IMG/VR virus record: IMGVR_UViG_3300037063_000214
DNA from: a virus
DNA length: 64,000 nucleotides
Reading direction: 5' to 3' (one strand)
The notes beneath the pieces are model-generated. The model saw only the letters and a list, made by a program, of their open reading frames with translations. It was not told the DNA's origin and did no database searches. Made by a program: the position numbers and the translations under genes. Shown here in pieces: positions 1-59,624 of the stretch; the first letter of the stretch is position 1; the number at the start of each line of letters is the position of its first letter.

Positions 1-1068
1 TTACACAATAGAGTATCAGAACTATCCGATCAATTTCAAAAAAGCGTGGTTACAACTGCGGAACAAGGAGCACCTAAATCTCCAGAAAGGAGATCGTCTT
101 TAAAAGAACTGGTTAATATGTTCTGGAATCTTAAAGATCGAGGAGGATTAGCTATAACCCTATCAAAAAAAGGAATAATGTCTATGGAACAAGTCATGGA
201 TAAATCTATGACTCAAGAAAAATTGATAGACGCTTTAGATTCTGTAGACAAAAACGGACAAGGTTTGATACAGCAGGGGGATATCAATAATGATATAAAT
301 AACGATGGATTTAACGCTATGAAAAATAGCGAAGAGTTACTGTACCACATAAATGAAAGACAAAAAAAAGACAAAATTACAGACAAAGACAGGGAGAAAG
401 ATTTAGATGTAGCCAGAATGCTGCAAAGACGAGAAACTACTCCAGCGGATGCAATTGGAGCAATCTTTCAACCTTGGATTTTTGAACTTATTCATGGGGT
501 TGAAAAATTAGTAGACTTAGCTACCTTAGGAACTAATGATACAGAGGCACTAAAAAAACTTTACGAGGAAGATAAAGGGTCTATCCAAAAAGAGATAGAT
601 AATACTCAAAAATCCATGGATGATATATCTCAAGGGCTTAAAGATATAGCAGGCATACACACCACAGAAGCCGACAAAAAAAGAAAAGAGTTAGAAGAAA
701 AAGGTAAAAATCTATTAGCTTGGAGAAATAGATTAGACTTGATTAGTGGTAACCAATCTTACAGTACGCCGGTCGAAGCAGCCAGCGTAGAAGCAGGATT
801 GGGGTTACAGCCAATTGCAATGGATTTAACTAGCAGGTTACCTAAACAGTTGGACAATGGTTTAATATTAGAGACTAAGGGGGGTAGTAATCAACCACAA
901 TATAAAATAGATCAAAGTTCATTTATTGTAAATCAGTTTAGCGCTCCAATTAACCAGGATGCTGGGTATAATGACAGCGCAAGCGTGTCTAATGAACAAG
1001 CAGGTAAACAGATGCACCCGGCAATCGCTCCTTGGTTGAATGGGGGACTTCCAAATAGGAATCAATAA
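1..1068 (+). CDS. Hypothetical virion/internal protein, 5'-partial. The frame is open from position 1, so the ORF continues upstream of the window. Charged, coiled-coil-rich.
   Basis: Frame 1 has no stop from nt 1; the track shows 46..1068. Ends TAA at 1066-1068, immediately upstream of the SLT-domain gene, which suggests a tape-measure or internal-protein C-terminus. K/E/D-rich composition. Confidence 0.5.
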   Translation, partial: LHNRVSELSDQFQKSVVTTAEQGAPKSPERRSSLKELVNMFWNLKDRGGLAITLSKKGIMSMEQVMDKSMTQEKLIDALDSVDKNGQGLIQQGDINNDINNDGFNAMKNSEELLYHINERQKKDKITDKDREKDLDVARMLQRRETTPADAIGAIFQPWIFELIHGVEKLVDLATLGTNDTEALKKLYEEDKGSIQKEIDNTQKSMDDISQGLKDIAGIHTTEADKKRKELEEKGKNLLAWRNRLDLISGNQSYSTPVEAASVEAGLGLQPIAMDLTSRLPKQLDNGLILETKGGSNQPQYKIDQSSFIVNQFSAPINQDAGYNDSASVSNEQAGKQMHPAIAPWLNGGLPNRNQ

Positions 1069-1102
1069 TCAATAATCAATAATCAATAATCAATAATCAA
1101 TA
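1061..1102 (+). repeat. Heptanucleotide microsatellite (ATCAATA)x6 at a gene junction
   Basis: Six perfect tandem copies of atcaata at 1061-1102. It contains the TAA stop of the upstream ORF, places stops in all three frames, and its last copy supplies the AT of the ATG at 1102. Confidence 0.9.
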
Positions 1103-2556
1103 TGCCAACAATATATAATTTCAACCAATTAGAGGGTTTTGCAGCTAATGCAGGTTTTACAGGAGATCAAATACCCATCATGGCCGCTATTGCTTTAGCG
1201 GAGAGTAGTGGGAATCCCAATAAATATAATCCAGACGACCCTGGGGGGTCAGTAGGCCTTTGGCAAATAGATGGGCATTATTGGCCACAGTATGACCAAA
1301 ATGTAATAACAGATCCTCAAGCTAATGCTGACGCAGCCTTCGCTATTTTCCAAGCCCAAGGTTACCGTGCTTGGACTACCTTTGGAAGCGGTGCTTTTTT
1401 GGACCATCTAGACCCAAATACAGCAACTCAAGTTGCTAGTACTTTAGGAATTTCCCGGTTTAATGTACTAAATACTCCAGTAGCGCCTCAAGTAGGAAAT
1501 ATTATTGGGCCTAACACAACCGGTACTAATTACGGATTATCAGCGGCTGATCTTACACCGCCTTTACAGGTTCCGGAGCCAAGTCTAAGCGCCACGCCAT
1601 GGTATTTGGATAGAAATTTAGTCACTGGAAATCCTCATGCGCGTGGTATGGTACAACCAGTGAGTTTTGTAGTATACCTGGATCGTAATGACCCCACACA
1701 AACGCTGAATAACCCCACTAATCAGCAACCTATCGTCATTGAACTCAACACATCAATGACTACATTTGAAATAGCAAGTAAGCATGTTTACAATCGCACC
1801 CCATCGCGTACAGGTATGCATATCACCCTCTGGGGTATGCAACCGGATCTCATCAATGGTAGCGGCACTACGGGAGTGTTTATGAATCAATACGGTATTA
1901 CAGATTGGTTCAGCACCGCTCAAATTAATGATGAGATAGCTAAATTGGTAGGAGCTGGTTTTAGTAACAATCCCGATACAGAAAGGGCTATTAACCAAAA
2001 CCCAGAAGCCTATCGAGTAGCGGCACAGGATTGTTTTGTAGAATTTTTGAAGTTATTCCAAATGAACGGTAATGTGTGGTATCACACGGATAGTTATAAC
2101 GGAACTATGGGCGAACAAGAACAACAAGCCCCGAATGGTTGGTCTACCAAAGTAGGAGCCAGTTCATTTCAACAACATGGGCGTAACAATGATGTTATGA
2201 CACGCGGGTATGTGGGGATGAAGTATAGAAACAATGTTTATTTGGGGTATTTCAAGTCTTTGAATTGGACCCAAGATGCGGACAGCCCGTTTCAATGGAA
2301 ATTTTCTTTTACATTTCAAGTTGAGAATACCTATACATCATTGTATTATCCCAATTTCCAAGTTACTCAACCTCTCCCTAAGATTAATTTACTGGCTCAA
2401 GCTACAACGCAGCCGATTGTTACATTGACAGAACGTGGGGGATCCGCAAGTGTAGGAGGTCTTACCACAACTATGGTTACATCTGCAACTAATACCATAG
2501 CTCAAACTTTAGGTCCAGTACAAACTACAACTTCAGGACCCGTGGGAGATATTTAA
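1102..2556 (+). CDS. Virion-associated peptidoglycan hydrolase with an N-terminal SLT / lytic transglycosylase (GH23-like) domain
   Basis: N-terminus ...AAIALAESSGNPNKYNPDDPGGSVGLWQIDGHYW has the SLT catalytic Glu-Ser and GLxQI motifs. No SD; start overlaps the upstream repeat. The C-terminal 45 aa are shared with the 3723..6827 protein. Confidence 0.7.
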   Translation: MPTIYNFNQLEGFAANAGFTGDQIPIMAAIALAESSGNPNKYNPDDPGGSVGLWQIDGHYWPQYDQNVITDPQANADAAFAIFQAQGYRAWTTFGSGAFLDHLDPNTATQVASTLGISRFNVLNTPVAPQVGNIIGPNTTGTNYGLSAADLTPPLQVPEPSLSATPWYLDRNLVTGNPHARGMVQPVSFVVYLDRNDPTQTLNNPTNQQPIVIELNTSMTTFEIASKHVYNRTPSRTGMHITLWGMQPDLINGSGTTGVFMNQYGITDWFSTAQINDEIAKLVGAGFSNNPDTERAINQNPEAYRVAAQDCFVEFLKLFQMNGNVWYHTDSYNGTMGEQEQQAPNGWSTKVGASSFQQHGRNNDVMTRGYVGMKYRNNVYLGYFKSLNWTQDADSPFQWKFSFTFQVENTYTSLYYPNFQVTQPLPKINLLAQATTQPIVTLTERGGSASVGGLTTTMVTSATNTIAQTLGPVQTTTSGPVGDI

Positions 2557-3722
2557 TGGCAAGCACAAATACAAACAACTCCAATATTGGATCAAATGTA
2601 AGTACCGATTTTAGTGATTTCAATATAACTGCGGGAAATTCGGCGCAAACATCCCCTGTTCAACTGCCTATTCGCGGAGAGAAACGCATCATTCCCTGTC
2701 CTATTAGCCCCAGCGATACCAGTAGTCAGATTGAAAAAGCATATACAGCACGGGGACAAAAATCCCCTCAAGATAAGGGTTACGCTGCCACCGGTCGAAC
2801 AAGTCTTGTGCAATATAGCGATTTTTTTACAGCGGGGGCGATGAAACCCTTCGTGGATTATGTACTCGTTCGTATACCACATCGCGGAGTTACATCCACA
2901 GGACAACAAAATGGTAATGCACCAGCAGCTATTTTTCGATTTCTCATTAACCCGTCTCAGGTTCAAGTCAATCGACAAACTTTAGATGGGCAAGCTATGA
3001 CTCGTGCTGGCTGGCAGATAGGTGTGTGGGGAGAAGATTCTTTCCAAGTAAATCTCAGCGGTAAAACCGCTGGCCAATATTTTGCCTTTGGAGTTACAGA
3101 TCAGTTTCAACCATTTTCAGATTCCTATCGGAATTTAGAGTCTTTGGTCATGGTGTTTGAAAATAACGGATACTGGTTTGAAGGAGAGCAAGCAGCTGAA
3201 GGCCCACTCGCAGCGGATTTCACCAGACGTAGAATCAAAATGCACCAAGATGTCGAATTGTGGGTAGGAAATTTTATTTGGTACGGTATGTTTGATTCCC
3301 TTACTATTAGTCAATCGGCGGAAGCACCTTGGCTGATGAATTTTCAAATCAGTTTTATCGCGTGGAAAGAGAGATTTCGCTCCACATCCCCGTATCAAAA
3401 TTTGATTCTCAATAATGTACAACGAGGGCATACTTATGGAGCATGGGCTTCGGCTGCTACCACTTCACAAAATGGTACAACTACAGTATCATCGTTGGCT
3501 AATTTACCTCCATCAAATATACCAGGAACCAATATTTCTAGTGTTGGGTTTAGTACATTGAATAGTCAACCAGCTTTAGTCTCCCCATCTGTTGCGGCTG
3601 CTAATGTTAACAATACCCTGCCACAAGTAGCTCCTACATCCGTAGATAATATGGCAAATACATCTTTTCTTTTAAACCCCACTAGTGTGGCAGCGTCTAA
3701 TTTTTATAACGGAGTTTCTTAA
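2556..3722 (+). CDS. Hypothetical structural protein (388 aa)
   Basis: TAATG overlap with the upstream gene; Ser/Thr/Asn-rich C-terminus; same operon. Confidence 0.6.
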   Translation: MASTNTNNSNIGSNVSTDFSDFNITAGNSAQTSPVQLPIRGEKRIIPCPISPSDTSSQIEKAYTARGQKSPQDKGYAATGRTSLVQYSDFFTAGAMKPFVDYVLVRIPHRGVTSTGQQNGNAPAAIFRFLINPSQVQVNRQTLDGQAMTRAGWQIGVWGEDSFQVNLSGKTAGQYFAFGVTDQFQPFSDSYRNLESLVMVFENNGYWFEGEQAAEGPLAADFTRRRIKMHQDVELWVGNFIWYGMFDSLTISQSAEAPWLMNFQISFIAWKERFRSTSPYQNLILNNVQRGHTYGAWASAATTSQNGTTTVSSLANLPPSNIPGTNISSVGFSTLNSQPALVSPSVAAANVNNTLPQVAPTSVDNMANTSFLLNPTSVAASNFYNGVS

Positions 3723-6700
3723 ATGGCTATTCCAGTTCCATTTGATCCGAATAACGCAGTTACCGTTACAGGTACAGGTGCAACAGTAGAAACGCAGAAT
3801 TCTACACTCCCGAATCAACTACCTATCTCCAATACATCACCCACAGGAGTTACGGGTACAGTTCCATCCCAAACTCCGGCTACTACTATTAGAAATTTGT
3901 CCCAAAGTTGTCAAGAAAGAGAAATAATCAAGACCGCTCCCGATGTTATTGTGTATTTAGAGGGAACCCCCTATTTGACAAATTACTTTATCGACGATCC
4001 AAAAACCAAAGCTAGTAGTACTTTAGTGAATTTTAATGACCATGTCACAGCATTCAACGCTTCTTATGATACAGATATAATGGTACCCAACGCCACTATC
4101 GGTTTGCAGGTTCCAAATTTTTTAAGGTACTTGTATAAAATGCCAGGGGGTAACAATCTTTTAGACACTATGATGCAGGTACAAGTATATGCTAAAGGAT
4201 ATTACTTAGCATCAAACGGAGATACAGTATATCGCCGGGTTTTCAAGGGAATCACATCTCACATAAGTTATAACGACAATGGAAAAACTCTGGAGATATC
4301 AATTCAATGTCAAGGGTCAATGCACTTACTTGAAAAGATGCAAATTAATGTTCACCCATCTGCAATGGCAGCGGTAACTTTAGGGAGTATGTTAACCTGG
4401 CAGCAAAGTATTTTTGGAGATAATAATTGTTTTACTATCTTAGCAAAAGCTTTCACAACAGGTTTTCAATCGGATGGATTTCAAGCTAGTTCAGTTAGGA
4501 GCACAGATGGAGGTTATTTAACTCCAAGTGATATGTTTTATTCCGCTGTTACTAGAGGTTACATGGCGAAATGGCAAGCCATTTTGATGAATATGATTAA
4601 AGATGTACATATTTATGGGCCAGACAAAGATACTTTAGGGCAATTAGATCAATTACAAGAAGATGAAAATAAAGGGAAGATGGACAAAGATAAGAAGTAT
4701 GCTAGTGTTACATCTCATCCCGTAAAAACTTTTACTGAAACGATTACTGATAACTCCCCTTATTATAAAAAAATACAACAATTTTTACCTTTTAGAACTC
4801 CCGCTAGTTTACAGCTTACTGAGAGTGTTATTGTTAATAGATTGGATATTATTCGTGAAGTAGTTAAGAAGATGGATTTTGAAGCATATCAAGATATTGA
4901 TGGTAAGATTATTATCAAACCACCTTTGTACAATCTGGATGTCACAAACTTAGGTACTCGGTCTAAACAAACTAGTTCCAGCCCTCAAAATTTTGACAGT
5001 TTAGTTCAATCATCTATATCTACTGCACTTAGTGGAGGCTCGACGCCAACAACAACTACCTCTAGTAATTCAGTGTCTGCTAGTAGCATTAATCCACCAT
5101 CTACTAGCAATAGTATGACGAATCCTCTGACTCAAATTTACCCGCAAAATAATCCTTTTGTGGTTTATTTATCAGAAATGTTAACAGAACAGGAAACAGA
5201 AGATCAAAGCGCCATTCGACGCACGCGCACCACTATAACAGGAAATATTATGCCGTGGCAGGGGAACAATTTTCCGGCACCCGCAAAGCCAGTAGCGGAG
5301 TATATTGATGTCACAAAACTAGCAAAGTTTGGTCTTAGGGAAGAACCCATGCAGCAAGTACCCTGGCTTACAATGGGAGACAAATATACTCTATTCGCTC
5401 ACGCTGCCGCAGAAACAGCTAGGACAAATAGAGGGTACCGTACTTACTCGTTTACTATTCCCATGCGCCCTGAATTGAAATTGGGATTCCCCGTATTTAT
5501 ACCCCACAAAGATATGTACGCATACATAAAATCTGTAGCTATAAATTATCAGGTTGGGGGGTCAGCTACAATGTCCATAGTATGTGATACAGTCCGACCT
5601 AGAGTTTTGGTTAAGACAGCTCAAACATCTACTACGGGCAATGTTAGTAATTCACCGGCCACAAAATTTTCCGCTTATACCACAGCCCCTAATTTAATTT
5701 ATATGTGGACAAATAATCCAGTCGCAGCTACGGTGTTTGATCCCGCGCAACCCCAAAGTTACAATCAATATATTCAACAAACCGCTGGGGGTAATCAAAA
5801 TACAAACACTAATATGACAAGTGAGCTAAATGTATCTCAATCTTTACCCGCTGTTACGAAAAACATTGACGGAACAAAATTTGGTCCAACAGATCAACAA
5901 ATAAAAGTGTATTCTTATCTATCCACTACCTTAGCAACAACCGTAGGTAATAAAGCCAGTACTCCTACATCTACTTATGTTATCGTAAATGATACGGGGT
6001 ATTTTAATGGAAGAGCAAAAGACCCAAATTATCCAGGCCGACCAGCGGATGGAGATTATGTAAAGGATATTTGTGGTAATCCAAATTCTGTTATTCCTTA
6101 CACAGATGATAAAGGATATGAATTAATATCCCCATTTCCATGGGGGAGATGGAAAGATCTCAACACAACCATCAGTGAAATAACCGAACAGGGGTGGATT
6201 AATATTCCTCAGACTAACGGGTTAAATGGGCAAGATTTACAAGATGAGACAACTTTTCAAAGTACGGAGGCTTTTTTGTTTGCTGGTTTAGGTACTCCAA
6301 CGGCTACAAGTGACCCATCGACTATGTTATCCACGGCCATGGCTACCCAACAAAGTACAAATACTACACCTACATCGGTTTCACCAGCTTCAGCATCAGC
6401 TCCAAATTCACCGAATACCGGGGGAAATTCGACAAATACCATACAACCAGATGTTACTGTAATAGTATTAGATTACAGTCAACCAGGTTCTAATAGTAAT
6501 TTGTTAAATGCAGCTCAACCAGAAAACGCCTTGGCCGCTAGTTTAGTTAGCGCTAAAAACGCTGGATTGGCCGAACAGCAGCTAGTTAGCGTATTAGTAT
6601 CTGGGACTGTAGCTCCAATCCCAGCGGTGCAAGAACAATTATTAATTGCTCAAAACAGTGCGGCTAATGCACAGCAGTCATTTGCTACACTGACCTTACC

Positions 6701-6827
6701 AGGGGGATCCGCAAATGCTGGGGGACTTACTACAACTAAGGTTACAGCTTCAACTAGTACTATAGCTCAAACTTTGGGTCCAGCGCAAACTACAACGAGT
6801 AATTTACCAGTAGATATAACACCATAA
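3723..6827 (+). CDS. Large structural protein (1034 aa), Thr/Ser/Asn-rich, with a C-terminal module shared with the SLT protein
   Basis: Long ORF coupled to its neighbours. C-terminus LTLPGGSANAGGLTTTKVTASTSTIAQTLGPAQTTTS is about 80% nt-identical to the end of 1102..2556. Confidence 0.65.
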   Translation: MAIPVPFDPNNAVTVTGTGATVETQNSTLPNQLPISNTSPTGVTGTVPSQTPATTIRNLSQSCQEREIIKTAPDVIVYLEGTPYLTNYFIDDPKTKASSTLVNFNDHVTAFNASYDTDIMVPNATIGLQVPNFLRYLYKMPGGNNLLDTMMQVQVYAKGYYLASNGDTVYRRVFKGITSHISYNDNGKTLEISIQCQGSMHLLEKMQINVHPSAMAAVTLGSMLTWQQSIFGDNNCFTILAKAFTTGFQSDGFQASSVRSTDGGYLTPSDMFYSAVTRGYMAKWQAILMNMIKDVHIYGPDKDTLGQLDQLQEDENKGKMDKDKKYASVTSHPVKTFTETITDNSPYYKKIQQFLPFRTPASLQLTESVIVNRLDIIREVVKKMDFEAYQDIDGKIIIKPPLYNLDVTNLGTRSKQTSSSPQNFDSLVQSSISTALSGGSTPTTTTSSNSVSASSINPPSTSNSMTNPLTQIYPQNNPFVVYLSEMLTEQETEDQSAIRRTRTTITGNIMPWQGNNFPAPAKPVAEYIDVTKLAKFGLREEPMQQVPWLTMGDKYTLFAHAAAETARTNRGYRTYSFTIPMRPELKLGFPVFIPHKDMYAYIKSVAINYQVGGSATMSIVCDTVRPRVLVKTAQTSTTGNVSNSPATKFSAYTTAPNLIYMWTNNPVAATVFDPAQPQSYNQYIQQTAGGNQNTNTNMTSELNVSQSLPAVTKNIDGTKFGPTDQQIKVYSYLSTTLATTVGNKASTPTSTYVIVNDTGYFNGRAKDPNYPGRPADGDYVKDICGNPNSVIPYTDDKGYELISPFPWGRWKDLNTTISEITEQGWINIPQTNGLNGQDLQDETTFQSTEAFLFAGLGTPTATSDPSTMLSTAMATQQSTNTTPTSVSPASASAPNSPNTGGNSTNTIQPDVTVIVLDYSQPGSNSNLLNAAQPENALAASLVSAKNAGLAEQQLVSVLVSGTVAPIPAVQEQLLIAQNSAANAQQSFATLTLPGGSANAGGLTTTKVTASTSTIAQTLGPAQTTTSNLPVDITP

Positions 6828-6828
6828 T

Positions 6829-9213
6829 ATGCCGCTACTAAGAAAAAATACGGATTTTTATCCACCTACATCATTTGAAAGAACAAATGAAAGCCTCCAC
6901 CGCGATATTTTCATTGTAGAAGTTCTTACTGTTGACTATGAGCGTAAAGTAATGACAGTAGAAGATGTCAAAGATGGCCTTATTTATGGTAATGTTCAAG
7001 TATTTCCATCCGCGTCCACTTCATCACAAGGATACGATATGGTAATGCCCGAACAAGGTTCTATGGGAATTGCTTGTAATTTTGCTTACGATAAAGGTTT
7101 TCGTCAGGTGATGATAATTAGCTGGATTCATATGGATAGGTATCTTGGGATAGATGCTGTTGGGGTTAGACAAATATCCGGCACCCGAATCCAAGGTTAT
7201 AGCGACCGTCTGAGAGGTGTATATCGAAAGGCGTTCCCAGGGCAAAAAACATCAGCTTATACAGGTGGGGCGTCAGAAAAGGTGGATACCGGCTGGGATA
7301 GACAAGCAGCCGATTATAGCAGAGATAAAACGGATGCGGATAAGCGTCAATGGACTCAGATAGCGGCCCGTAGGGTCTCCTATACCGATGCTGGGGTATC
7401 TTTTGAGGGGTCAGTGAATCGCCCTCTGGCATCAAATTTAATCCCTGTGATTCTCCCAGATGGGACAATGGAATATGTAGCCTACCTGCAACCCGGAGCC
7501 CAACCATCAGATCGATATGTTAGCGGGAAGCAGGATGTAATTCCTTTCGCTGAACACACAGAATTGACGCAGGAATTCTCTCTTGATTATCCCATGCCTT
7601 ATGAAGTATTACAGACCAGTTTGTTTAACACCGTATTAGGTTCTACCGCAGACCCATGGGCACGCACTAAGGTAACCTCTCCCAGCGGTCAAGTAGCTTA
7701 CGATAACGAAACTTACATGATTACCCAGACTTGGGATGATCCGTTTGATGATAGAGCAAAAGCCGTGGGTCCAACACTTAATGAAGGACCTACCCCGCAA
7801 CGTAGAGCTTTTATTGTAGAAAAATCTCAAGGCACCTTGGTTGGATATAATATTTTTGACCAGGCAACTTACGGTCATGTGTTGAAGCCTGTTCTATTCC
7901 CTTATAATTACTGCGGGCGTTTTGGAGCAGATGTGGAATCAGGATATTTGCCAGTTGTGGATTCCGCGGATCATGAAGAAGCTCGTTTAGCAGCATCTTG
8001 TCTAGCCATACGATTCCCTTATGACCAAAACACTACGCGATTGGATGTAACGAAAGAGGGTTTTATCAGCTTGGAAATCGGATCGACTTTACCTAAAGAA
8101 AATATTCTAAAGCATTGGCAAGGTGGATATGAACACCCCCACGGTGCTGGCCGTTCTTTAGAAGCGCACCTTGTAGGTAGTGCAAAAATTGTTATCGGTA
8201 AAAATAGAGATGAAGAAGATGCTTTGGACGCTCAAATTTTAGGGCAATCTGTAATTCGTCTAGGGGCGGATGATGCATCTCTTCCGAATTCTCGTCGCAC
8301 AGTACAGACTCAAATTCGAAGTAATGGAGATATTCCGGCGACTCGTACTTTACAGTTCTGGACCGAACACAAATTGAATCCAGGGGACGCCGGTAGCCTA
8401 ACTATGAAAACGGGTGCTGAGAATATATCTCTTCGCGCTGCTACGGATGGAGGCGCTGTACTACGCTTGGGGGCTAAGAATCCAGCATCTTTACGCCGTC
8501 ATTTGATTAATGGGTACTCCGATGGTCCTGGTAAAACCGCTTATCCAGAATCTCCTACAGGACCTTATGGCGGAGGTACTGATTGTGGGGAACCTTTCCA
8601 TGGTCGCATAGACTCCAAGAGCCCGGGTCGTCCCACCTACGGAGCCGGGGATAATATTTATCGGTTCCATGATCTTACTCAAGTAGGAACACCCCCGCCA
8701 AATTCGGGGACAACTGACTTTAATCCTTTTCCCCCATACGCATGGAGTGGTTCTCCAGTAATCAACATGGATGCTCATGGGCAATCTCTTGATTTGCATG
8801 CTGTGCGAGATGCTTTATTGCGTTTGGGTTCAAATCCAGATTCTGGGCAATCGTTGCTTTTAGACTTAGCCGGTGGAATAGTTGCAGCACTGGGAAAAGA
8901 CAATCAGGGGCGTTCTATTACCGCGGCCTTAGACGGCGGGATTGAGATTACTATACTTCCTAACGCACAAGGAAAAGCCATGCGATTAAATATTATTGGT
9001 GATGTTGACATCTCTCATAAAGGGCACCTTCAGTACAACTGTGGGGGAGATATAATTACAGAATGTACAACAGCGAGAAGTATTGTAAAAACAGATCGTA
9101 TTGAAACACAGATGAATGCGATTAGTGCTTCTCTTGTTAGCGATAAGAGAGAAGCTCCAAATTCTGTGGATAATAATGGACTTTATGTCAGCAATGAAAA
9201 TCAAATTTCTTGA
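6829..9213 (+). CDS. Hypothetical structural protein (794 aa), possibly a baseplate or tail-tip component
   Basis: Long ORF starting immediately after the upstream stop; no recognisable catalytic motif. Confidence 0.6.
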   Translation: MPLLRKNTDFYPPTSFERTNESLHRDIFIVEVLTVDYERKVMTVEDVKDGLIYGNVQVFPSASTSSQGYDMVMPEQGSMGIACNFAYDKGFRQVMIISWIHMDRYLGIDAVGVRQISGTRIQGYSDRLRGVYRKAFPGQKTSAYTGGASEKVDTGWDRQAADYSRDKTDADKRQWTQIAARRVSYTDAGVSFEGSVNRPLASNLIPVILPDGTMEYVAYLQPGAQPSDRYVSGKQDVIPFAEHTELTQEFSLDYPMPYEVLQTSLFNTVLGSTADPWARTKVTSPSGQVAYDNETYMITQTWDDPFDDRAKAVGPTLNEGPTPQRRAFIVEKSQGTLVGYNIFDQATYGHVLKPVLFPYNYCGRFGADVESGYLPVVDSADHEEARLAASCLAIRFPYDQNTTRLDVTKEGFISLEIGSTLPKENILKHWQGGYEHPHGAGRSLEAHLVGSAKIVIGKNRDEEDALDAQILGQSVIRLGADDASLPNSRRTVQTQIRSNGDIPATRTLQFWTEHKLNPGDAGSLTMKTGAENISLRAATDGGAVLRLGAKNPASLRRHLINGYSDGPGKTAYPESPTGPYGGGTDCGEPFHGRIDSKSPGRPTYGAGDNIYRFHDLTQVGTPPPNSGTTDFNPFPPYAWSGSPVINMDAHGQSLDLHAVRDALLRLGSNPDSGQSLLLDLAGGIVAALGKDNQGRSITAALDGGIEITILPNAQGKAMRLNIIGDVDISHKGHLQYNCGGDIITECTTARSIVKTDRIETQMNAISASLVSDKREAPNSVDNNGLYVSNENQIS

Positions 9214-12300: not shown

Positions 12301-12657
12301 ACTCACGCGAGTTACGGTCCAGCATCAGACACAGGGAATGTGTATTTAGCGATTGATGATTCCGGATCAATTTTATCTCCGAATCCTGATGGAATTACAA
12401 TCGCTTCCGCAGCTGCGGGGAGTATGGTAAGTGTTAATACGATTTACGGAGAATCGGTGCAGATACCAGGTCTTACTTTAACTGTTGGACAACCTGTTTA
12501 TGCGGGGTTGAATGGTGTATTGACTCAAGACTATACAACTCTCATCACTCAAGTAGGGTGGGTAATGTATATAGGAATGGCCATACCTGGAACTTTAACA
12601 TTACCGCAGACTGATACTATACTTTACGAGCCGCACATTCCAACAATATATATATAG
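9301..12657 (+). CDS. Tail fibre/receptor-binding-like protein (1118 aa) with a CBM5/12-like motif and one GF-x-N...FTA module
   Basis: VAYQVNDVVTYNGNLYIALQINTGYEPDTNPTYWQ resembles chitin-binding CBM5/12 (aromatic...GD.V.Y.G..Y...W). Later SGFDAASFVNNQVALITGITTNTFTATF is the recurring module. GAGAG SD before the ATG. Confidence 0.65.
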   Translation: MGSIPGLTQAENNALLWPIKAKGQVNRLNPLGDPTIEQYYHSAMEQGRFLEKSIADANNWILQKKQQALKYIQTYTHMNSLAVDGQLQHGPRAVKYIADSISILKTVAQFEKEITGLAQAIQQNLTMLLSIEQSMLQMVQTNSNALANLLNNVCNWGLPARPSIPNLLPEGMWNWNGFNFAPLANFAKAFATPPSFNFNFSFSQCSLSIPGLFNSGALGNNIPISVTTNSGLMLGTAQYIPPLGGSSSSAPGASPVYGPTFNPNTSMNGAVPDPHTIVDNYLMPAATYMNNIVSITPVLRGDTVEPTDADYSNPNYTVRAAGLRKDLIHFITLGNIVANNYDPFITSAWILYLNATHIGRGGNWLPNFESVYEQYIQPSITYLQNTPVPYNNVSGNGVEYMSIWGTTVAYQVNDVVTYNGNLYIALQINTGYEPDTNPTYWQTPIPLNTVYENAPNNIPLIATLNSLSLGDRNTLLWKLSYIEASLLGYTRNQTWDAYQNANYLSNVTGSDLDYTPTAISTTTSTLILGEGVADFPTPITFPSSMTVQLNAVIAAATINIQNDVGYLSVRLGNRYTYNQFAQATLVDRFSQFWRDFATNLKILLAQDPYLVQFVITYFGTLNGALNPLADATAYNALQVDTSSRNRSWTPGTPLLSIPIAPIVSYTDNGSPPSTGGWINPPIDFDPNTFLARPDVQGQPIPVQMAMLRTNISYAALQTFKNNFQNEIAGQIANAQSILAQSQQIGFHVTAVNDTTTVPSGASIPVLFDDSTNSALGDYDYTGNVTNPTTFTIQAAGDYAGYGQLDWVATVAGTYNVTINQNGVGIFTTSVTTTSANASLTLPFSFAGSFAQGDVVQVIANQDNGVPQNVIPQSFFSLVQTGAQTTSSGSPPVTPSDTTTMFTMVNSLPTWVSSPVPAATVVQVIQPNGNVVPVDPFVPGVSLIQITNPNVVMITVDTTHHFFMGQLIVFSGFDAASFVNNQVALITGITTNTFTATFISYTHASYGPASDTGNVYLAIDDSGSILSPNPDGITIASAAAGSMVSVNTIYGESVQIPGLTLTVGQPVYAGLNGVLTQDYTTLITQVGWVMYIGMAIPGTLTLPQTDTILYEPHIPTIYI

Positions 12658-29908: not shown

Positions 29909-32900
29909 ATGTCATCACCAGCCACAACATTATCGCCGTTTATATTGGTCACCCCAGTTCTTCCTCCGGGTACAACGGTATTGTCTACGGATTCTTCGGT
30001 ATTGCCGTTCATTATTAACGCTAGTTTAGATACAACGAGAATAGAAATAGGCATCTACAATACCGTTTATGGGGTTGATACTTACACTACAAACACCAAT
30101 CAAAATCAGTTTACCTTAAGTGTACCTTTAATTCTTACGACAGCAAATACTAATGTACAGATAATTGGGCGTAATTATGATCCCACACAATTTCCTAACG
30201 GCTGGCTCGCTAGTACATCCGTAGCTCCAAATTTTGATTTTGCTGACCCCAACGGAAATGTTCAAGTGGTGTTGGGTACTTTAGTAAATAATCCTTTATC
30301 TTTAAATATCACATCTGGCACTACGGGAATCGTTCAACCATCATGGAATACCGCTATTCCAGCTAATATCACATATGTGAGCCTAGCTTATGGAACTTCA
30401 GTAATAGCTACACTCACAGCCGCTAATAATTTTGTAGCGGGACAATATGTTTACCTTACACGATTGACCAACGCTTCATTTTTGAACGGGCAACTGGTGG
30501 TAGTTTTACCGGGAGTAACACCTACTCAATTTCAAGTAGCTGTAATTAATACCCCTCTAACCTATTTGGCTCAACCGGATACGGGTTATGCCCAATCCAT
30601 TACCCTAGATAATGGGGTTGTATGGACAAACATAGGGCCTATAGCTGTCACCCCCATTGTTAAATTTTCATTACTGGCGTATCAAAGTAATTTATCTATG
30701 GCGATTTCCCCGCCCTCTGGTATTACCGCTAGTAAAAATCAATCAGAGTGTTTAATACAGTGGGTTACTCCAAATTATCCGGGCTTCATCGGGGTCAGAG
30801 TGATGCTGTCTACTGATCCAGCTGGAATCAATCCCCCATACACTCAGTTTGGGGATTTAGTTTCAAACATCAGCAGCACCGCACCTACAATTATTGATAC
30901 TGAAACCACCAGTGCAACCAATGTGTCTGAAGTTATTATTACCGGCATTGGTATTTTTAACAATGTCTTGACGGTACAAGCACAAAATACATTCACCCCG
31001 GGTACAGTGGTTCAGTTTTCTAATATAGCCAACGCAGATTTTCTTGATAATGAAACGGTCACTATATTGACGACCACACCGTCTCAATTCACAGCTAGTT
31101 ATACATCTTTGAATTATCCTAACCCTACCACTTCATCCCTCTTTATTGCAGCAGATACAGGACAGGCTACAAGTATCGTATCCACAAACATTGTTACAAA
31201 TACAAGCACAGTAATGGAGACAAATTATAGCAGTGTAGAGATTCCGTATACAACTATTAACAATTCCATATTTTATGCTCTGTTTTCCACGATAATTCAA
31301 GACCCAGGAACAAATACAATGTACGAGTCTGTGCAAAACGGACCTTTAACCTGCGGCTTTGTAAACCTACAACTGGCTAATCCTACAGATTTTCCCGTTC
31401 TACAACGCAAAGAAGACATTGCCGGTAGATTGATTACTCAAATTACTCGGCAACTTCCGAATTTGGATTTGTCACCCCGTTCAGAAATCCGTGATATGTT
31501 TATCGATCCTTTTTCGATTGAGCTAGCAAGTATGTCTGTGCGTGAATGGTTCGCCAGGGTTTCAGAATCTATCTCCGCTATTTCTCAAGTTGATAATGTT
31601 AGTGGAAACGGCGTATCCGACCCATTTCAATCATCACCATATAAACAACAAATCGCTAGGGCTTTTGGTTTATCCGCAATAAGCACTCAAACCCTTATCA
31701 ATCAGCAGTTTGATTTATTGGGTGGGCAGGCTGGGTTAACTCGTTTGGGGGCTTCTACAGCTACCGGAGTTGCTACATTCTACGCCTATCAGCAACCGCA
31801 GTCCAGCATTACGATTCCCGAAGGGGCAGTGATCGCCACATCTCCGGATTCTAACACTGCCGCGGTGAGTTTCACTACTCTAGGGCAAGGGGTTATTAAT
31901 TTATCTAATCTATCCGCGTTCTACAACTCCCAATCTGGCTGGTGGGGAGTAAGCGTACCCATACAATGTACGCAACCAGGTTCAATCGGCAATGTAGGCG
32001 CTGGTACAATTACTCAAACAGTCACAGGTGTTCAGGCTGGGGTGAGTGTTACTAATTTAACCGCCGCACAATACGGAACAGACCAAGAAACCAATGCTGC
32101 ATTTGCTGCTAGAATTCAAGCTCGTTTGGTAACTGGAATTGATAATAGCTCACGAAATGGGTATTTGGTCAATGCTTTAAGCACTCCCGGTATCATTGGG
32201 GCTCAAATTGTGGCAGCTGGTGATTTGGACATGCTCAGAGACTGGGATCCTACTCGACAAAAGCATGTCTTTGGCTGCGTGGATATTTATGTGCGAGGTA
32301 CTACATACTCAGAGCAAAATGAGTTTGTCCCATTTCAGTACGCCAACAACGGAACGTACGGCATCTATAATACCTATTCTTCACTCGTTTACCAAGCGGG
32401 GACACTTCAGTTTCAAATTCAAGGTTATAATACTTTGGCGTATCCTCCATACGATGGTGTGGAACTACTGGTATCTCGTTCATCTACTCAGAGTTTTTAT
32501 CTGTCATTAGATAGAGCCCAATTCGTGAATAACACTGTTATTCTAAACCCCAATGATATAGCATATCAATATGCAGGTAACTCAATTACATATGCTAAGG
32601 TTGCGCTGAATATTAATAATGTTCCAGCCACAAATCAAGCCGCCTTAGCAGCTATCTCTGGTGCTTTGGTTAATACTTACACTTTTCAGTTGTTATTCCG
32701 TGAAAAATCAACTTTTATCCATGCTCCTGCGTTACAGCCTATAATTCAAGTGAATTCTATTACAGGGGAACCTACTCCTACTGGCACAGGCGTGGTTAAT
32801 TCGAATATTGTGAGTTTGATTCATACATCAGATTTTTTACTCAACGGTGGATCAAACAACGCTGGGGATCTGGTTGAAGTAGCAATACAAAGTCAACCTA

Positions 32901-34657
32901 TTACAAATGTTATTACAGCCAGCACTATGAATCCGGTGTTGATTGACACCGCGATGGATGTCCCCCTGAATAATAATGGAAATCCTTTGAATGTTTTATC
33001 TGTTCTTAGTCAGGATATGTCAACTTCTTATATTTATGGAACAGACTACACTATCGTTCCCTACGGTCCTTATCATCAGTATGGTTTGCAAGTTCTTACT
33101 TCTACTGTCGTAGTCACGGGAGTGAATATAAGTAATAATGTGATTACAGTCATAGCAAATAATGAGTTTGGTATAGGATCTTCTGTAACATTAAACGGGT
33201 TTACAAACTCATCTTTCTTGAACGGCCAAGTTCTTACAATCGCCACAGCAACGTCTTCATTTTTTACAGCTACCTTTACTTATCCCAGCTATGTCGGTAT
33301 AGATAGCGGTACAGCGATGGGCAGCGCCATTCAAAATAATCAACAGGTATCTGTAACATATAACAAATTTGTCTTATATGAACGCCTGAACTTTGTAAGC
33401 GAAGAAACTCAGATACTTACCGGGTCTCTTCCTACTATGTTGGATAACGATGGTTTTGTATATAATGTATGGTTGCCTCAGAGTTACACAACTGGGATAC
33501 CTACTTTTCCCGTTACTCAGCTTGGGTATTCTTTGCTACTTGATGGATGGGACGGGCAGTATAACACTATAGACGGTGGTTTGGATACAGGGGGTTCTTT
33601 AACTTTTGATCCATCTGGTCTAGTGGGTAATCAAGTTCCTTATGCCTCTAGATATATCAAGGTGACATATAATAATGGAATTTTAGATGTAGTGATGCAA
33701 GAAGGTTTAGATTTTACTTTAACCGTCGATCCTACAACAAAGGCAGCAACCATTACTCGTATTCTTACTGGTAAGATACCTGACGGCGCTACAGTTAATG
33801 TATCGTATTTTACCTTGGAAACTTTTACATTTTCTACCCAGTATCCATCTTTTGTACAAGTTTTAGCAACCGCCATCGCTCAAACTCAGTCTGCTTGTGC
33901 AGACGTAGCGATTAAAGCTATGGTAAGTAACCCTATTGATATTACACTTACAGTTACCCTTAACGCCAGCACATCTCCAGCAACTGTGGATCCTATTATT
34001 CGTACAGTCATTGATATTGTGCTAGATAACGCCGTAGGTACATTATATCAATCTGAGTTGATTACACAAATCCAGTCGATTACCGGAGTGCAAAATATTG
34101 AAATACCTCTTTTGAGATGCGCTAAATCTGATGGCAGTTATGATATCGGGGTTGTAATTCCCACAGGCACGAAATGGATTCCACTTTCATCTGACTCAGC
34201 TTTCGCCGGTATTAGTACCCCAAAAAATAGTTGGATTACAGCGGACCCCGTGCTGCCGGATACTACGATTCCATCTGGAGGGGCGGTGGATGCTATTGTA
34301 GATTTTCTTTATCAAGGACAGGCTTTTCAAAGAGCTTTATCTATTCAAAATTTTCTAACCAATCCTGTGACAGTTCAAAATATCGCTGTTCCTCCAGGTG
34401 CTACTTATGATACTCCCGGCTCATTTTATATCATAGGGCAGAATGATGAGATTAGTTCCACGGTGTCTTTACCCAATTCTTATTCTCAAAGAATTATCGC
34501 TACAGTCCCTGAAAATATTTTGAATCCGTCTTATTATAGTTACTTCTGTACTTATCAAGTTTATAATGAAGGGGGTGCGTCCGATGTAACTGTATCGCCC
34601 ACAGAATATCTATCCCCCGGGACTGTTACGATCGCATATCAAATAGCGGGGCAATAA
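29909..34657 (+). CDS. Giant structural protein (1582 aa) with three or more GF-T-N-x-x-F-L-N-G...FTA modules
   Basis: AGQYVYLTRLTNASFLNGQLVVVL..TQFQVAV; GTVVQFSNIANADFLDNETVTILTTTPSQFTASY; SSVTLNGFTNSSFLNGQVLTIATATSSFFTATF. Confidence 0.65.
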   Translation: MSSPATTLSPFILVTPVLPPGTTVLSTDSSVLPFIINASLDTTRIEIGIYNTVYGVDTYTTNTNQNQFTLSVPLILTTANTNVQIIGRNYDPTQFPNGWLASTSVAPNFDFADPNGNVQVVLGTLVNNPLSLNITSGTTGIVQPSWNTAIPANITYVSLAYGTSVIATLTAANNFVAGQYVYLTRLTNASFLNGQLVVVLPGVTPTQFQVAVINTPLTYLAQPDTGYAQSITLDNGVVWTNIGPIAVTPIVKFSLLAYQSNLSMAISPPSGITASKNQSECLIQWVTPNYPGFIGVRVMLSTDPAGINPPYTQFGDLVSNISSTAPTIIDTETTSATNVSEVIITGIGIFNNVLTVQAQNTFTPGTVVQFSNIANADFLDNETVTILTTTPSQFTASYTSLNYPNPTTSSLFIAADTGQATSIVSTNIVTNTSTVMETNYSSVEIPYTTINNSIFYALFSTIIQDPGTNTMYESVQNGPLTCGFVNLQLANPTDFPVLQRKEDIAGRLITQITRQLPNLDLSPRSEIRDMFIDPFSIELASMSVREWFARVSESISAISQVDNVSGNGVSDPFQSSPYKQQIARAFGLSAISTQTLINQQFDLLGGQAGLTRLGASTATGVATFYAYQQPQSSITIPEGAVIATSPDSNTAAVSFTTLGQGVINLSNLSAFYNSQSGWWGVSVPIQCTQPGSIGNVGAGTITQTVTGVQAGVSVTNLTAAQYGTDQETNAAFAARIQARLVTGIDNSSRNGYLVNALSTPGIIGAQIVAAGDLDMLRDWDPTRQKHVFGCVDIYVRGTTYSEQNEFVPFQYANNGTYGIYNTYSSLVYQAGTLQFQIQGYNTLAYPPYDGVELLVSRSSTQSFYLSLDRAQFVNNTVILNPNDIAYQYAGNSITYAKVALNINNVPATNQAALAAISGALVNTYTFQLLFREKSTFIHAPALQPIIQVNSITGEPTPTGTGVVNSNIVSLIHTSDFLLNGGSNNAGDLVEVAIQSQPITNVITASTMNPVLIDTAMDVPLNNNGNPLNVLSVLSQDMSTSYIYGTDYTIVPYGPYHQYGLQVLTSTVVVTGVNISNNVITVIANNEFGIGSSVTLNGFTNSSFLNGQVLTIATATSSFFTATFTYPSYVGIDSGTAMGSAIQNNQQVSVTYNKFVLYERLNFVSEETQILTGSLPTMLDNDGFVYNVWLPQSYTTGIPTFPVTQLGYSLLLDGWDGQYNTIDGGLDTGGSLTFDPSGLVGNQVPYASRYIKVTYNNGILDVVMQEGLDFTLTVDPTTKAATITRILTGKIPDGATVNVSYFTLETFTFSTQYPSFVQVLATAIAQTQSACADVAIKAMVSNPIDITLTVTLNASTSPATVDPIIRTVIDIVLDNAVGTLYQSELITQIQSITGVQNIEIPLLRCAKSDGSYDIGVVIPTGTKWIPLSSDSAFAGISTPKNSWITADPVLPDTTIPSGGAVDAIVDFLYQGQAFQRALSIQNFLTNPVTVQNIAVPPGATYDTPGSFYIIGQNDEISSTVSLPNSYSQRIIATVPENILNPSYYSYFCTYQVYNEGGASDVTVSPTEYLSPGTVTIAYQIAGQ

Positions 34658-57369: not shown

Positions 57370-59541
57370 ATGAATCGTATTGTATCCGCACTTATCGTTT
57401 TTGTATTATTTGTAACCCCAGTTTTTGCTAGAAACCATCCATTGAAACGTCATGTCCGCAAAGAAGTTACATCGGCTGCTCGTGTAAGTGACCTTCCAGC
57501 AGATCGTCAATTGATTATGGCTATTATGTTGCCTCTCCGCAATGAGTCAACTTTAACAGCTCTTTTACAGCAAATAAACACCCCATCAAGTCCTTTGTAT
57601 CACCAGTTTCTAACGCCTGAACAATTCACTAAAGAGTTTGGTCCAACGGAACAGGATTATCAAGCGGTAGTTCGTTTTGCTATAAAGCAGGGGTTTTTTG
57701 TGTACAAACAACACACTAATCGTATACTTGTTGATATCACTGGATCTACAGCACAAATAGAAAAAGCTTTCAATGTAAAAATGGGGTTATATAAACATCC
57801 TATTGAAAATCGTAATTTTTATTCTCCAGATGTAGAACCGTCTCTTGATTTAGATGTTCCAATCTATCGTATTGCTGGTTTAAATAATTTCTCTATTCCT
57901 AGTCGTAGATTGATTAAGCGTTCATTTAACGCTCGTCTATCAGATGTAGTTGCAGGGTCTGGTCCTAGCGGTTCTTTCCGTCCATCGGATATGCGAGCGG
58001 CATATTATGGATCAGGTACTTTGACAGGTACCGGTCAATCTGTGGGCATGTTAGAGTTCGATGGTTATAATATCGCAGATGTAAATTCTGATATGGGGGG
58101 TGTTGCTTATACCGTACCTGTACAGAATATTCTTGTCGATGGTGCAAGTGCTGGCTCTGATGGAGATGATGGAGAGCAAGCTTTGGATATCGCTCAAGCT
58201 ATCGGTATGGCACCGGGGTTAACTTCTGTACGGGTTTACATCGCCCCAGGCAATTCCGCCATAGGTACCGGAGATGTGGATATTTTTAATCAAATGGCTG
58301 TGGACAACATTTCCAAACAATTGAGTTGTTCTTGGGGTTGGAGTCCCGATGATATAACTGATGATGACCCTATTTTTAAAGAATTCGCAGCACAGGGTCA
58401 AAATCTTTTTGTAGCCTCTGGAGATGCTGGTAAGTATACGGGAAATAACAATAATGATAGCAGCTACCCAGCTGAAGATCCGTATGTTGTAGCTGTTGGC
58501 GGTACGGATTTAACTACAAATGGTGCTGGAGGAACTTGGCAAACAGAAACGGCTTGGTCGGATAGCAGTGGTGGTCCAGCGGACGATGGTTTTGCAATTC
58601 CTAGCTGGCAAGTAGGAGTAGCAAATTCTAATGGTGCTTCTACAGCAATTCGTAATGTTCCGGATGTTGCCGCAGAAGCAAATTTCGATAATATTATGTG
58701 TGATGATGGCGCTTGCACTTACAATCAAACTGGGGGTACTAGCTATGCTGCGCCTCGCTGGGCTGGCTATATGGCTTTAGTGAATCAGCAGAACATGACT
58801 AATCATGGTACTACTTTAGGTTTCTTGAATCCCTTGATTTATCCCATTGGTTTCGGTGCTGCGTACACTATTAATTTTCACGATATTACAAGCGGGAGCA
58901 ATGGGCATCCGGCTACTGTTGGGTATGATATGGTAACTGGTTGGGGTAGTCCTAATGGGGCAACTTTAATCAATACTTTAACAGGCGCTCCAACCGGAGT
59001 AGGATTACAAGCAACTTATAATCCAACCTATAAAACTCCAGCATGTACAGTTGTCAGTAATTCCTGTGATTCAGGCCCAACTCTACTTTTAGGTCGCGGA
59101 AATGTGCATAACGGTGCGGAACAAAATCACCCCAATACAATCAATAACTCTTGCGGGGATGGGAACTCGGGGGTATTTCACTCCTATGAATCAAATGATC
59201 GCCTTGCGGTAGCTTCTGTATCTGGTGGGTTGTTAACCGCGGGTACAAAAGCAACGATAACAGCCACAGTATGGGCTCGAAAGGATTTTGAAAGCGATTC
59301 TCTTGACCTTTACGTTACTTCAAATGTTGTAAATCCTACTTGGGTTTATATCGCTACGCTTAAGCCCACTAAAGATGCACAAAATATTTTATCGACTACA
59401 TTTACTCTCCCAGCCTCCGGCAATTTACAAGCTGTACGAGCACATTTTCGATATGAGGGACATGTGAATCCATCGGCTTGTGGTAATTCTTCTGGTGGAG
59501 AGTATGATGATTATGATGATTTAGTTTTTGCGGTGAATTAA
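57370..59541 (+). CDS. Secreted S53-family serine peptidase (sedolisin/kumamolisin-like) with an N-terminal pro-kumamolisin activation domain
   Basis: AGGAGG SD. Signal peptide MNRIVSALIVFVLFVTPVFA. Pro-domain QFLTPEQFTKEFGPTEQDYQAVVRFA. Catalytic Ser motif GGTSYAAPRWAG; Asp/Glu-rich catalytic region. Confidence 0.8.
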   Translation: MNRIVSALIVFVLFVTPVFARNHPLKRHVRKEVTSAARVSDLPADRQLIMAIMLPLRNESTLTALLQQINTPSSPLYHQFLTPEQFTKEFGPTEQDYQAVVRFAIKQGFFVYKQHTNRILVDITGSTAQIEKAFNVKMGLYKHPIENRNFYSPDVEPSLDLDVPIYRIAGLNNFSIPSRRLIKRSFNARLSDVVAGSGPSGSFRPSDMRAAYYGSGTLTGTGQSVGMLEFDGYNIADVNSDMGGVAYTVPVQNILVDGASAGSDGDDGEQALDIAQAIGMAPGLTSVRVYIAPGNSAIGTGDVDIFNQMAVDNISKQLSCSWGWSPDDITDDDPIFKEFAAQGQNLFVASGDAGKYTGNNNNDSSYPAEDPYVVAVGGTDLTTNGAGGTWQTETAWSDSSGGPADDGFAIPSWQVGVANSNGASTAIRNVPDVAAEANFDNIMCDDGACTYNQTGGTSYAAPRWAGYMALVNQQNMTNHGTTLGFLNPLIYPIGFGAAYTINFHDITSGSNGHPATVGYDMVTGWGSPNGATLINTLTGAPTGVGLQATYNPTYKTPACTVVSNSCDSGPTLLLGRGNVHNGAEQNHPNTINNSCGDGNSGVFHSYESNDRLAVASVSGGLLTAGTKATITATVWARKDFESDSLDLYVTSNVVNPTWVYIATLKPTKDAQNILSTTFTLPASGNLQAVRAHFRYEGHVNPSACGNSSGGEYDDYDDLVFAVN

Positions 59542-59548
59542 CCAGAGC

Positions 59549-59624
59549 GCTCTTGTAGCTCAGTGTAGAGCATTCCGTGTGCAACGGAAGGGTCGGATGG
59601 TTCAACTCCATCCCAAGGGCTCCA
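59549..59624 (+). tRNA. tRNA-like element, possibly a degenerate tRNA (anticodon loop tgTGCaa implies UGC/Ala) with an encoded 3' CCA
   Basis: Acceptor gctcttg/caagggc (one U-G) then t, CCA. D-arm gctc-agtgta-gagc (6-nt loop). Anticodon stem ttccg/cggaa. T-arm ggatgg-ttcaact-ccatcc. Non-canonical G at position 33 and a 6-bp T-stem. Confidence 0.5.

Follow-up and report, generated by a model that had tools for sequence, protein, structure and literature searches.

A shared C-terminal module on a tube-initiator-like lysin and the baseplate hub of a large soil myovirus: probable copying between genes and a possible docking peptide

The stretch of DNA analysed here, 64,000 nucleotides of the IMG/VR virus record IMGVR_UViG_3300037063_000214 and referred to below as the window, derives from a large soil myovirus with a contractile tail. 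Two neighbouring genes within it encode otherwise unrelated tail proteins that end in the same module. The first protein carries a lytic transglycosylase (SLT) domain and resembles tail-tube initiators, and the second appears to be a giant baseplate hub. The hub copy most probably arose through intragenomic duplication or gene conversion, and the copying event itself is ordinary recombination. The last 14 residues of the module recur at the termini of both protein families in related genomes. The full account, in which a tail copied between genes carries a 14-mer that serves as a movable peptide for docking within the baseplate core, has about an even chance of being correct; the docking function taken by itself is a tentative reading, a little short of even. 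Both module shuffling and terminal docking arms are known in kind, and what merits further attention is the relocatable 14-mer. The carriers and the two copies of the module are as follows.

1102..2556, + strand: tail lysin/tube-initiator-like protein of 484 residues (Pfam, fold and gene position)
3723..6827, + strand: baseplate hub protein of the gp27/Mu gp44/VgrG-N class, 1034 residues (fold comparison)
2393..2556, + strand: module copy A, tail of the SLT protein, putative donor (alignments; homologous tail in the closest relative, P0002/L055)
6661..6827, + strand: module copy B, tail of the hub, putative recipient and lineage-specific (alignments; absent from 119 other hub C-termini)

The first-pass annotation, made from the letters of the sequence, had described two open reading frames (ORFs) of 484 and 1034 residues whose ends, at 2431-2556 and 6694-6827, were about 80% identical, with the rest of the two proteins unrelated. 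Both ORFs and the quoted peptide strings are correct, the identity is upheld by MAFFT and BLAST at the nucleotide level, and these coordinates fall inside or overlap the aligned repeat. The repeat pairs 2409-2531 with 6674-6796 at 80.5% identity over 123 ungapped nucleotides (blastn E=3e-28), and the best local DNA alignment, 2393-2531 against 6661-6796, is in frame. The final 25-31 nucleotides ahead of the stop codons are more diverged and contain two 3-nucleotide (one-codon) indels, through which the protein alignment persists. Both copies end directly before the start codon of the next gene (TAATG and TAATATG). At the protein level, BLASTP with compositional adjustment aligns the C-termini at 54% identity over 68 residues (E=2e-12). 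Tail against tail, identity is 69% across 54 aligned residues, with a Smith–Waterman score of 152 (z=18.8 from 300 shuffles), and the string ‘GGSA(S/N)(V/A)GGLTTT’ is exact or nearly exact in both copies. BLASTP shows no further sequence similarity between the two carriers.

An assembly artefact is ruled out, as both proteins occur with identical tails on 16-43 contigs from several sources, up to 176 kb in length; it is also contradicted by the copies being only 80% identical. The first-pass annotation had allowed for a common threonine-rich, low-complexity tail found on many unrelated proteins. This was not borne out when a profile of the module was run against 1.84 billion representative proteins. 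The exhaustive search returned only the SLT protein of the phage itself (E=2e-24) and two irrelevant matches, both of them unrelated, internally repetitive proteins.

The tail appears to be at home in the SLT lineage. In the closest relative, P0002/L055, the SLT protein is 69% identical to that of the window and carries a homologous tail, LLAQAVTPQQITVTSLGGFAVAGGVTSTKV...PQTSTSTLPDQIT. A subclade of SLT homologs bears a shorter version of it, ..TLP[GN]GTT[IV]Q..PQ.TTS.LP[DN]Q[IV]T, and the glycine-rich stretch is confined to the window and L055. Because the tail is native to this lineage, the SLT gene is, from sequence comparison, the parsimonious donor of the module. At the hub C-terminus the module is present in just one of 120 hub homologs, that of the window. 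When SLT tails and hub tails were paired within 31 distinct genomes, they were similar only in the window; the 30 others gave p >= 0.003, mostly above 0.2, and a clade-wide rule that both proteins end alike is rejected by this pairing. Sharing of the whole module is lineage-specific, since the hub homologs, the 31 genomes and the search of 1.84 billion proteins show it nowhere else. The first-pass annotation had suggested looking through the remaining and related genomes for further copies; tblastn and blastn reveal no third copy in the window at the DNA or protein level, and no other hub C-terminus among the 120 homologs carries one. Its idea of a recombination remnant thus stands as regards origin.

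The two window copies share 14 aligned states against the L055 tail and are 69% identical to each other, as compared with 43-57% to the L055 tail. By this measure, the duplication or the latest conversion came after L055 had branched off. The copies have diverged to a synonymous rate (dS) of 0.42 and a non-synonymous rate (dN) of 0.17, a dN/dS ratio of 0.40 on 40 codons with 11 synonymous and 13 non-synonymous changes. Around the upstream edge of the repeat the two families were already alike (‘LLAQ/LLIAQ’, GCTCAA/GCTAAT), the hub family reading ‘..PAVQE.LLA.Q..’ and the SLT subclade ‘..LLAQA.T.Q..’ at this point. It is plausible from these sequences that the shared LLAQ-like edge offered microhomology for the exchange.

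The last 14 residues of the module form the motif P-x-[QE]-T-T-T-S-x-L-P-[DN]-[QA]-I-T. It was followed with a position-specific scoring matrix (PSSM) built solely from 14 C-termini of the SLT family, with shuffled sequences as controls. The PSSM scan took the place of a 14-column seed hidden Markov model in HMMER, which was too insensitive and gave one match. There are three instances in the window.

2512..2553, + strand: degenerate instance at the SLT C-terminus (GPVQTTTSGPVGDI), PSSM score 15.4
3780..3821, + strand: weak instance in the N-terminal extension of the hub (ATVETQNSTLPNQL), PSSM score 11.4
6780..6824, + strand: well-preserved instance at the hub C-terminus (PAQTTTSNLPVDITP), PSSM score 21.6

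The hub C-terminal copy retains the L-P...I-T core and thus keeps to the consensus S-x-L-P-x-x-I-T better than the putative donor (21.6 vs 15.4). The weaker N-terminal instance in the window hub can also be written ATVETQNSTLPNQLP. An N-terminal extension of at least 20 residues before the conserved ‘IRNISQTVQEREIIK’ core is present in 39 of 115 hub homologs. Nine of the extended homologs hold a strong motif, often then followed by ‘PSSNSPAGTSGT’; their PSSM scores are 19-31 at residues ~15-35, and the best of 600 shuffled hub sequences reached 17. Among the 120 homologs, a high score at the hub C-terminus is found in the window hub only. Among ORFs of at least 150 residues, taken from the first 53 loci and from the initial 22 kb of the window, there were 12 hits, 11 of them on termini of the SLT or hub families, against one hit in shuffled ORFs. 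Over 126 related loci, too, strong hits keep to the termini of these two families, with one exception. Counted by genome, the strong motif lies at the SLT C-terminus in four and at the hub N-terminus in eight, and it is found on both proteins in the window only. Across these genomes the amino acids of the motif are kept and the codons vary synonymously (Ser AGC/TCG/TCA; Leu CTT/CTC/CTA/CTG/TTG/TTA; all Thr and Pro codons). Conserved residues together with free codon turnover point to selection acting on the peptide.

Examples of hub extensions include window 3723-3887 and those of P0177, P0178, P0182, P0183, P0186, P0190, P0193, P0173, P0159 and P0127. It has been noted that gene callers sometimes pick a downstream methionine as the hub start, by which the extension is lost (P0189 vs L010). 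The distant hub L007/P0233 has a motif-like ‘AQSTTTSSILDNIENEMGNPVGPNA’ near its C-terminus (residues ~915-939, PSSM score 18), the sole further hint, outside the window, of the tag at this end of a hub.

Neither carrier had a usable sequence annotation, and their structural classes are known by fold and gene context. The SLT protein consists of the SLT domain (residues 1-114), a disordered linker (115-134), a tail-tube-fold domain (~160-412) and a disordered C-terminal tail (434-484). It belongs to the SLT family (PF01464/PF18896), matching SLT_3 with 69.1 bits (cut-off 27; E=4.6e-19) and Pfam SLT with 26.2 bits (cut-off 21.3), and a profile search of the PDB matches EtgA and Slt70. The N-terminal domain has a lysozyme-like fold with the catalytic glutamate in an E-S motif, residues 160-412 adopt the tail-tube (Hcp-like) β-barrel fold, and the gene sits between those for the tape-measure protein (TMP) and the hub. 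The order TMP, initiator and hub has also been described for P2 and pyocin (bioRxiv 10.64898/2026.09.14.750843). The structural comparison gave these values.

phi812 baseplate component: 10.0
pyocin R2 ‘ripcord’ PA0626: 9.5
phiCD508 LysM protein: 9.1
P1 PmgG: 9.1
Pa193 ripcord-1 / ripcord-2: 8.7 / 8.2
Bas63 tube initiator: 8.2
Mu gp43: 8.1

Judged by its modelled fold and gene context, the 1102..2556 product is a lytic transglycosylase fused to a tube initiator/ripcord-like domain. Members of the SLT family have a conserved core that closes with ‘FQVE[RK]T...Y.P’ and is followed by a hypervariable tail of 0-75 residues; in the window protein, residues 434-484 have a predicted local distance difference test (pLDDT) score below 50, consistent with disorder. 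A second recurrent ending, proline-rich and then T/A-G (PPPPPTGG, PPGPSTGS, VIPPPTGS), is seen on SLT proteins of many genomes. It forms the C-terminus in L002, L012, L013, L016, L023, L060, L070, L074, L075 and L113 and in many of P0003-P0093, and also stands on a ~1090-residue ORF in the tape-measure position (L012) and on a ~376-residue protein (L016/L017). From its distribution among these sequences, it may be another relocatable terminal peptide.

The 1034-residue protein shows the tandem tube-like domains with inserted domains that mark baseplate hubs. A sequence-profile search of the PDB with it gave no match, and its identity as a hub is taken from fold comparison alone. The N-terminal extension (residues 1-62) and the C-terminal tail (967-1034) have pLDDT below 50 and are predicted to be disordered. 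The first-pass annotation had spoken of two virion proteins, a description that can now be refined to a tube-initiator-like lysin and a baseplate hub. From their fold classes, both would be stacked neighbours at the centre of the baseplate. A distinct hub ending, ‘..[ST].[EQ]LDQ[FY][KQ]G..’, is found in one subclade (P0162, P0165, P0166, P0168-P0170, P0176, P0181; L014, L016), and the endings of other subclades read ‘..DLYPTTNQQG[IT]K’, ‘..GLPQF..’ and ‘..PQNVQLLN.I..’. Hub tails therefore form several discrete classes.

The proposed course of events begins with the native SLT tail, which non-reciprocal intragenomic recombination would have copied onto the hub gene. The copied tail would have replaced the short tail that the hub had of its own, after the family-conserved ‘...PAVQE-LL-A-Q’ segment. 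The 14-mer may then act as a short linear motif: located in a terminal, disordered arm, it would hold its carrier to a partner that the carriers have in common within the baseplate core, with strand addition or groove binding as the likeliest mode. This partner could be the 388-residue protein encoded between the two carriers, the 794-residue protein encoded after the hub, a wedge protein or the C-terminus of the tape measure. If the tube-initiator ring lies directly on the hub, one and the same site could be within reach of the tag, whether it is borne by the C-terminus of the initiator or by the N- or C-terminus of the hub. This would explain the moves of the tag between termini and would make relocation tolerable.

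Known baseplates offer a parallel. In those of myoviruses and tailocins, the C-terminal part of the initiator extends out of the ring and passes down between hub and wedges, as in the helix-rich/LysM domain of Mu gp43 and the extensions of Pam3, E217 and XM1 that hold BH1a (PMC11915804). In pyocin R2, it is a ripcord domain that keeps the pre-contraction state stable (bioRxiv 10.64898/2026.09.14.750843). In the phage studied here, a flexible arm with a binding motif at its end would take the role of these extensions. The first-pass annotation had offered a docking or incorporation signal for the entire module; this is plausible for the last 14 residues only, which recur at the SLT C-terminus and the hub N-terminus and are conserved as a peptide. 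A stronger form is rather doubtful. It would make the 14-mer a self-contained ‘address tag’ of a soil jumbo myovirus clade, directed to one conserved receptor site in the baseplate core, effective from the C-terminus of the tube-initiator lysin or from either terminus of the hub, and moved between carriers at least twice; with two copies per chain, the window hub would present six per trimer, matching the six-fold surroundings.

Several observations weigh against the docking account. The motif is absent in about 35 of 50 genomes, and in many members of the clade the SLT protein ends right after ‘FQVE.T....P’ and the hub has no extension; the tag is therefore dispensable or replaced by other tails. 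In the window itself the SLT copy has lost the Leu-Pro core (GPVGDI, score 15.4). With 40 codons to go by, a dN/dS ratio of 0.40 lies barely below the neutral value, and tests for selection on the hub copy have no power, whether by relative rates (4 vs 3 sites) or by strain polymorphism (six variable sites in the hub, none in its tail). As regards timing, the L055 hub gene ends at a contig edge ~60 residues before its stop, so that the duplication could be older than assumed. The placement of the motif at either the SLT C-terminus or the hub N-terminus is suggestive but not statistically significant: none of 12 genomes has it in strong form at both sites, where ~0.6 genomes with both would be expected by chance, and the states largely follow subclades. 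Mutually exclusive placement is not claimed.

A part of this evidence suits an alternative, judged somewhat unlikely, in which the 3′ end of the SLT gene was pasted onto the hub gene as a neutral remnant, a harmless disordered appendage, and the tails have no common function. The arrangement is lineage-specific, in both families the tails are often absent and, where present, hypervariable in sequence and length, the dN/dS value does not clearly depart from neutrality, and the window shows other intragenomic module sharing among tail proteins. Against this, the copy is still open and in frame to its end at a dS of ~0.42, and the hub has held the motif consensus better than the donor did. In addition, the 14-mer is conserved with synonymous codon turnover in distant genomes, at termini of both families. 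An element acting at the nucleotide or RNA level, such as translational coupling or regulation of the downstream genes (2556.. and 6829..) from the 3′ ends, might be suspected from the position of both copies immediately ahead of the next start codon. It is largely refuted and scarcely credible, because neither copy folds, as RNA, more stably than shuffles do (z = +0.84 and +0.35) and the nucleotides next to the downstream start codons are the least conserved. Moreover, it is the amino acids and not the codons that are conserved, and the motif is also found at the 5′ end of the hub gene.

Two further possibilities would give the tails a shared function other than docking. The first-pass annotation had also offered a shared maturation site. 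Trimming of both proteins at one site within the tail during maturation or infection, by autoproteolysis or by a phage protease and for instance at the glycine-rich ‘GGSAxxGG’, is improbable. Such a role would fit the near-exact preservation of this stretch in both copies and the accessibility of tails predicted to be disordered, and the window codes for a sedolisin/subtilase-like peptidase (57370..59541); a glycine-rich autoproteolysis site exists in the Tal proteins of lactococcal phages. However, this glycine-rich string is limited to the window and L055, what the clade conserves is the terminal 14-mer and not an internal site, and the versions of the motif at the hub N-terminus lack the stretch. 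It is very improbable that the Thr/Ser-rich tails are substrates of phage-directed O-glycosylation or other modification. Their TTTS/T-rich composition and predicted disorder fit this, and mycobacteriophage virion proteins with glycosylated C-terminal tails are known, but both carriers are buried components of the baseplate core and glycosylation leaves the conserved L-P-D/N-Q-I-T half unexplained.

The docking account can be compared with known systems. Tube initiators with C-terminal extensions (PA0626, Mu gp43, Pam3/E217/XM1) are encoded at the same position, directly after the tape-measure gene, and in solved examples the C-terminal arm leaves the ring to contact hub and wedges (PMC11915804; bioRxiv 10.64898/2026.09.14.750843). 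The arm in the window differs in being a short, disordered T/G-rich peptide and not a helical or LysM domain, the initiator-like protein carries an N-terminal SLT lysin, and the same arm is also placed on the hub. To our knowledge, such an arm on both initiator and hub is reported in none of these structures, and we know of no description of one terminal peptide common to the two. The hub itself is about three times longer (1034 residues) than gp27, Mu gp44, P2 gpD and VgrG-N hubs, has extra domains, and bears the motif on disordered N- and C-terminal tails.

Portable terminal targeting peptides are the other point of reference. They include the capsid targeting sequence of T4 internal proteins, the cargo-loading peptides of encapsulins and the N-terminal signals of payloads of the Photorhabdus virulence cassette (PVC) and extracellular contractile injection systems (eCIS). 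Like these, the window tag is a short disordered terminal peptide, common to unrelated proteins of one particle and movable between carriers, and its placement may be N- or C-terminal, as with encapsulin peptides. Targeting peptides load cargo into a shell or tube, whereas the carriers in the window are themselves structural core proteins, and there is no sequence similarity. The shared tail thus belongs to no known family of targeting peptides or initiator arms; it resembles the former in principle and the latter in location. Mosaic exchange among tail genes, as of fibre anchor and receptor-binding modules, likewise involves intragenomic or intergenomic recombination that moves a short module, and the fibre-like proteins of the window provide further examples. 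The module described here differs in that it is a disordered terminal peptide carried by core proteins, the hub and the initiator, and no folded domain of a fibre.

Should the 14-mer prove to be a genuine docking tag, it would offer a minimal, transferable handle by which proteins could be attached to the core of contractile-tail baseplates, and would show how one contact can serve both a trimeric hub and a hexameric initiator ring. This would bear on the engineering of tailocins and contractile injection systems and on annotation in soil jumbo phages, whose structural genes are largely unknown. Taken as no more than a recombination remnant, it still documents gene conversion between core tail genes and not just fibre genes. 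Either way, structure-based roles can be put forward for three conserved, previously unannotated proteins of a widespread clade of soil megaphages: a tube-initiator lysin, a second initiator-like protein and a giant hub.

Among GenBank phages, neither near-identical DNA nor a close relative was found for the window. Tunturiibacter phage Tunturi_5, a cultured, contractile-tailed soil jumbo phage of 309 kb (PMC11924767), has a ‘tail protein’ that shares 33% identity with the 1034-residue protein; the SLT protein of this phage stops at the end of the core and has no tail. The annotated order in Tunturi_5 is chaperone, tape measure, ‘lytic tail protein’, structural protein and ‘tail protein’. The corresponding order of TMP, SLT protein, ~380-residue protein, ~950-residue protein, ~800-residue protein and ~1000-1100-residue fibre is kept in ~120 metagenomic or viral loci of the clade, some on contigs of 330-465 kb. 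The other genes of this block in the window are listed below.

1..1068, + strand: 3′ part of the tape-measure protein gene; frame 0 is open from nucleotide 1 and runs off the window start
2556..3722, + strand: 388-residue baseplate-core protein, weakly tube-initiator-like, lacking the module; position conserved at all loci
6829..9213, + strand: 794-residue conserved protein of the same gene block; position conserved at all loci

The ORF that ends just upstream of the SLT gene is 1040-1150 residues long in relatives, and the Tunturi_5 ORF at this position is annotated as a tail length tape measure protein. PF23980 (Phage_tail_tube_init) is matched by 12 of 19 orthologs of the 388-residue protein, and in the window protein itself the match is below the cut-off (E=0.0025); a sequence-profile search of the PDB with this family gave no match. 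The 794-residue protein has no match in Pfam or PHROG. A Baseplate_J wedge protein is encoded further downstream of the carriers, at 29909..34657.

In several relatives an ORF of 191-217 residues sits exactly between the SLT gene and the ~380-residue gene (L018:6910-7485, L019:7944-8519, L035:10870-11499, L038:1135-1764 and L050:8175-8828; also L051 and L052). Its product ends in ‘..GGY.K.N.W.ISKKAN.{2}K.N..’ and shows a weak NUMOD3 match below the cut-off. By its sequence it looks like an insertion of the homing-endonuclease type, and such an element could favour gene conversion where the two genes meet.

Downstream of the structural block, the window codes for a DEAD/ResIII-type helicase (40130-41923) and a RecA-like recombinase (51307-52587). 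The peptidase gene at 57370..59541 encodes 723 residues with a pro-kumamolisin activation domain, a subtilase/sedolisin-like peptidase domain and a weak GEVED domain, and is directly followed by a tRNA-Ala (TGC) gene (59549-59624). From its domain content, this sedolisin-like protein is a candidate processing or host-directed protease.

Other sharing of modules within the window involves a 261-residue minus-strand protein (15352-16137), which has a repeated segment of 45-80 residues in common with a 1871-residue He_PIG/Ig-domain protein (20643-26258, + strand) at 43-52% identity (E=4e-12). The 1582-residue Baseplate_J protein (29909-34657), an 819-residue protein (34657-37116) and a 1118-residue CBM_5_12 fibre-like protein (9301-12657) have short segments in common at 29-41% identity (E about 1e-4). 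The fibre-like family has the C-terminus ‘..F.YEPH[IV]PTR..’ throughout the clade.

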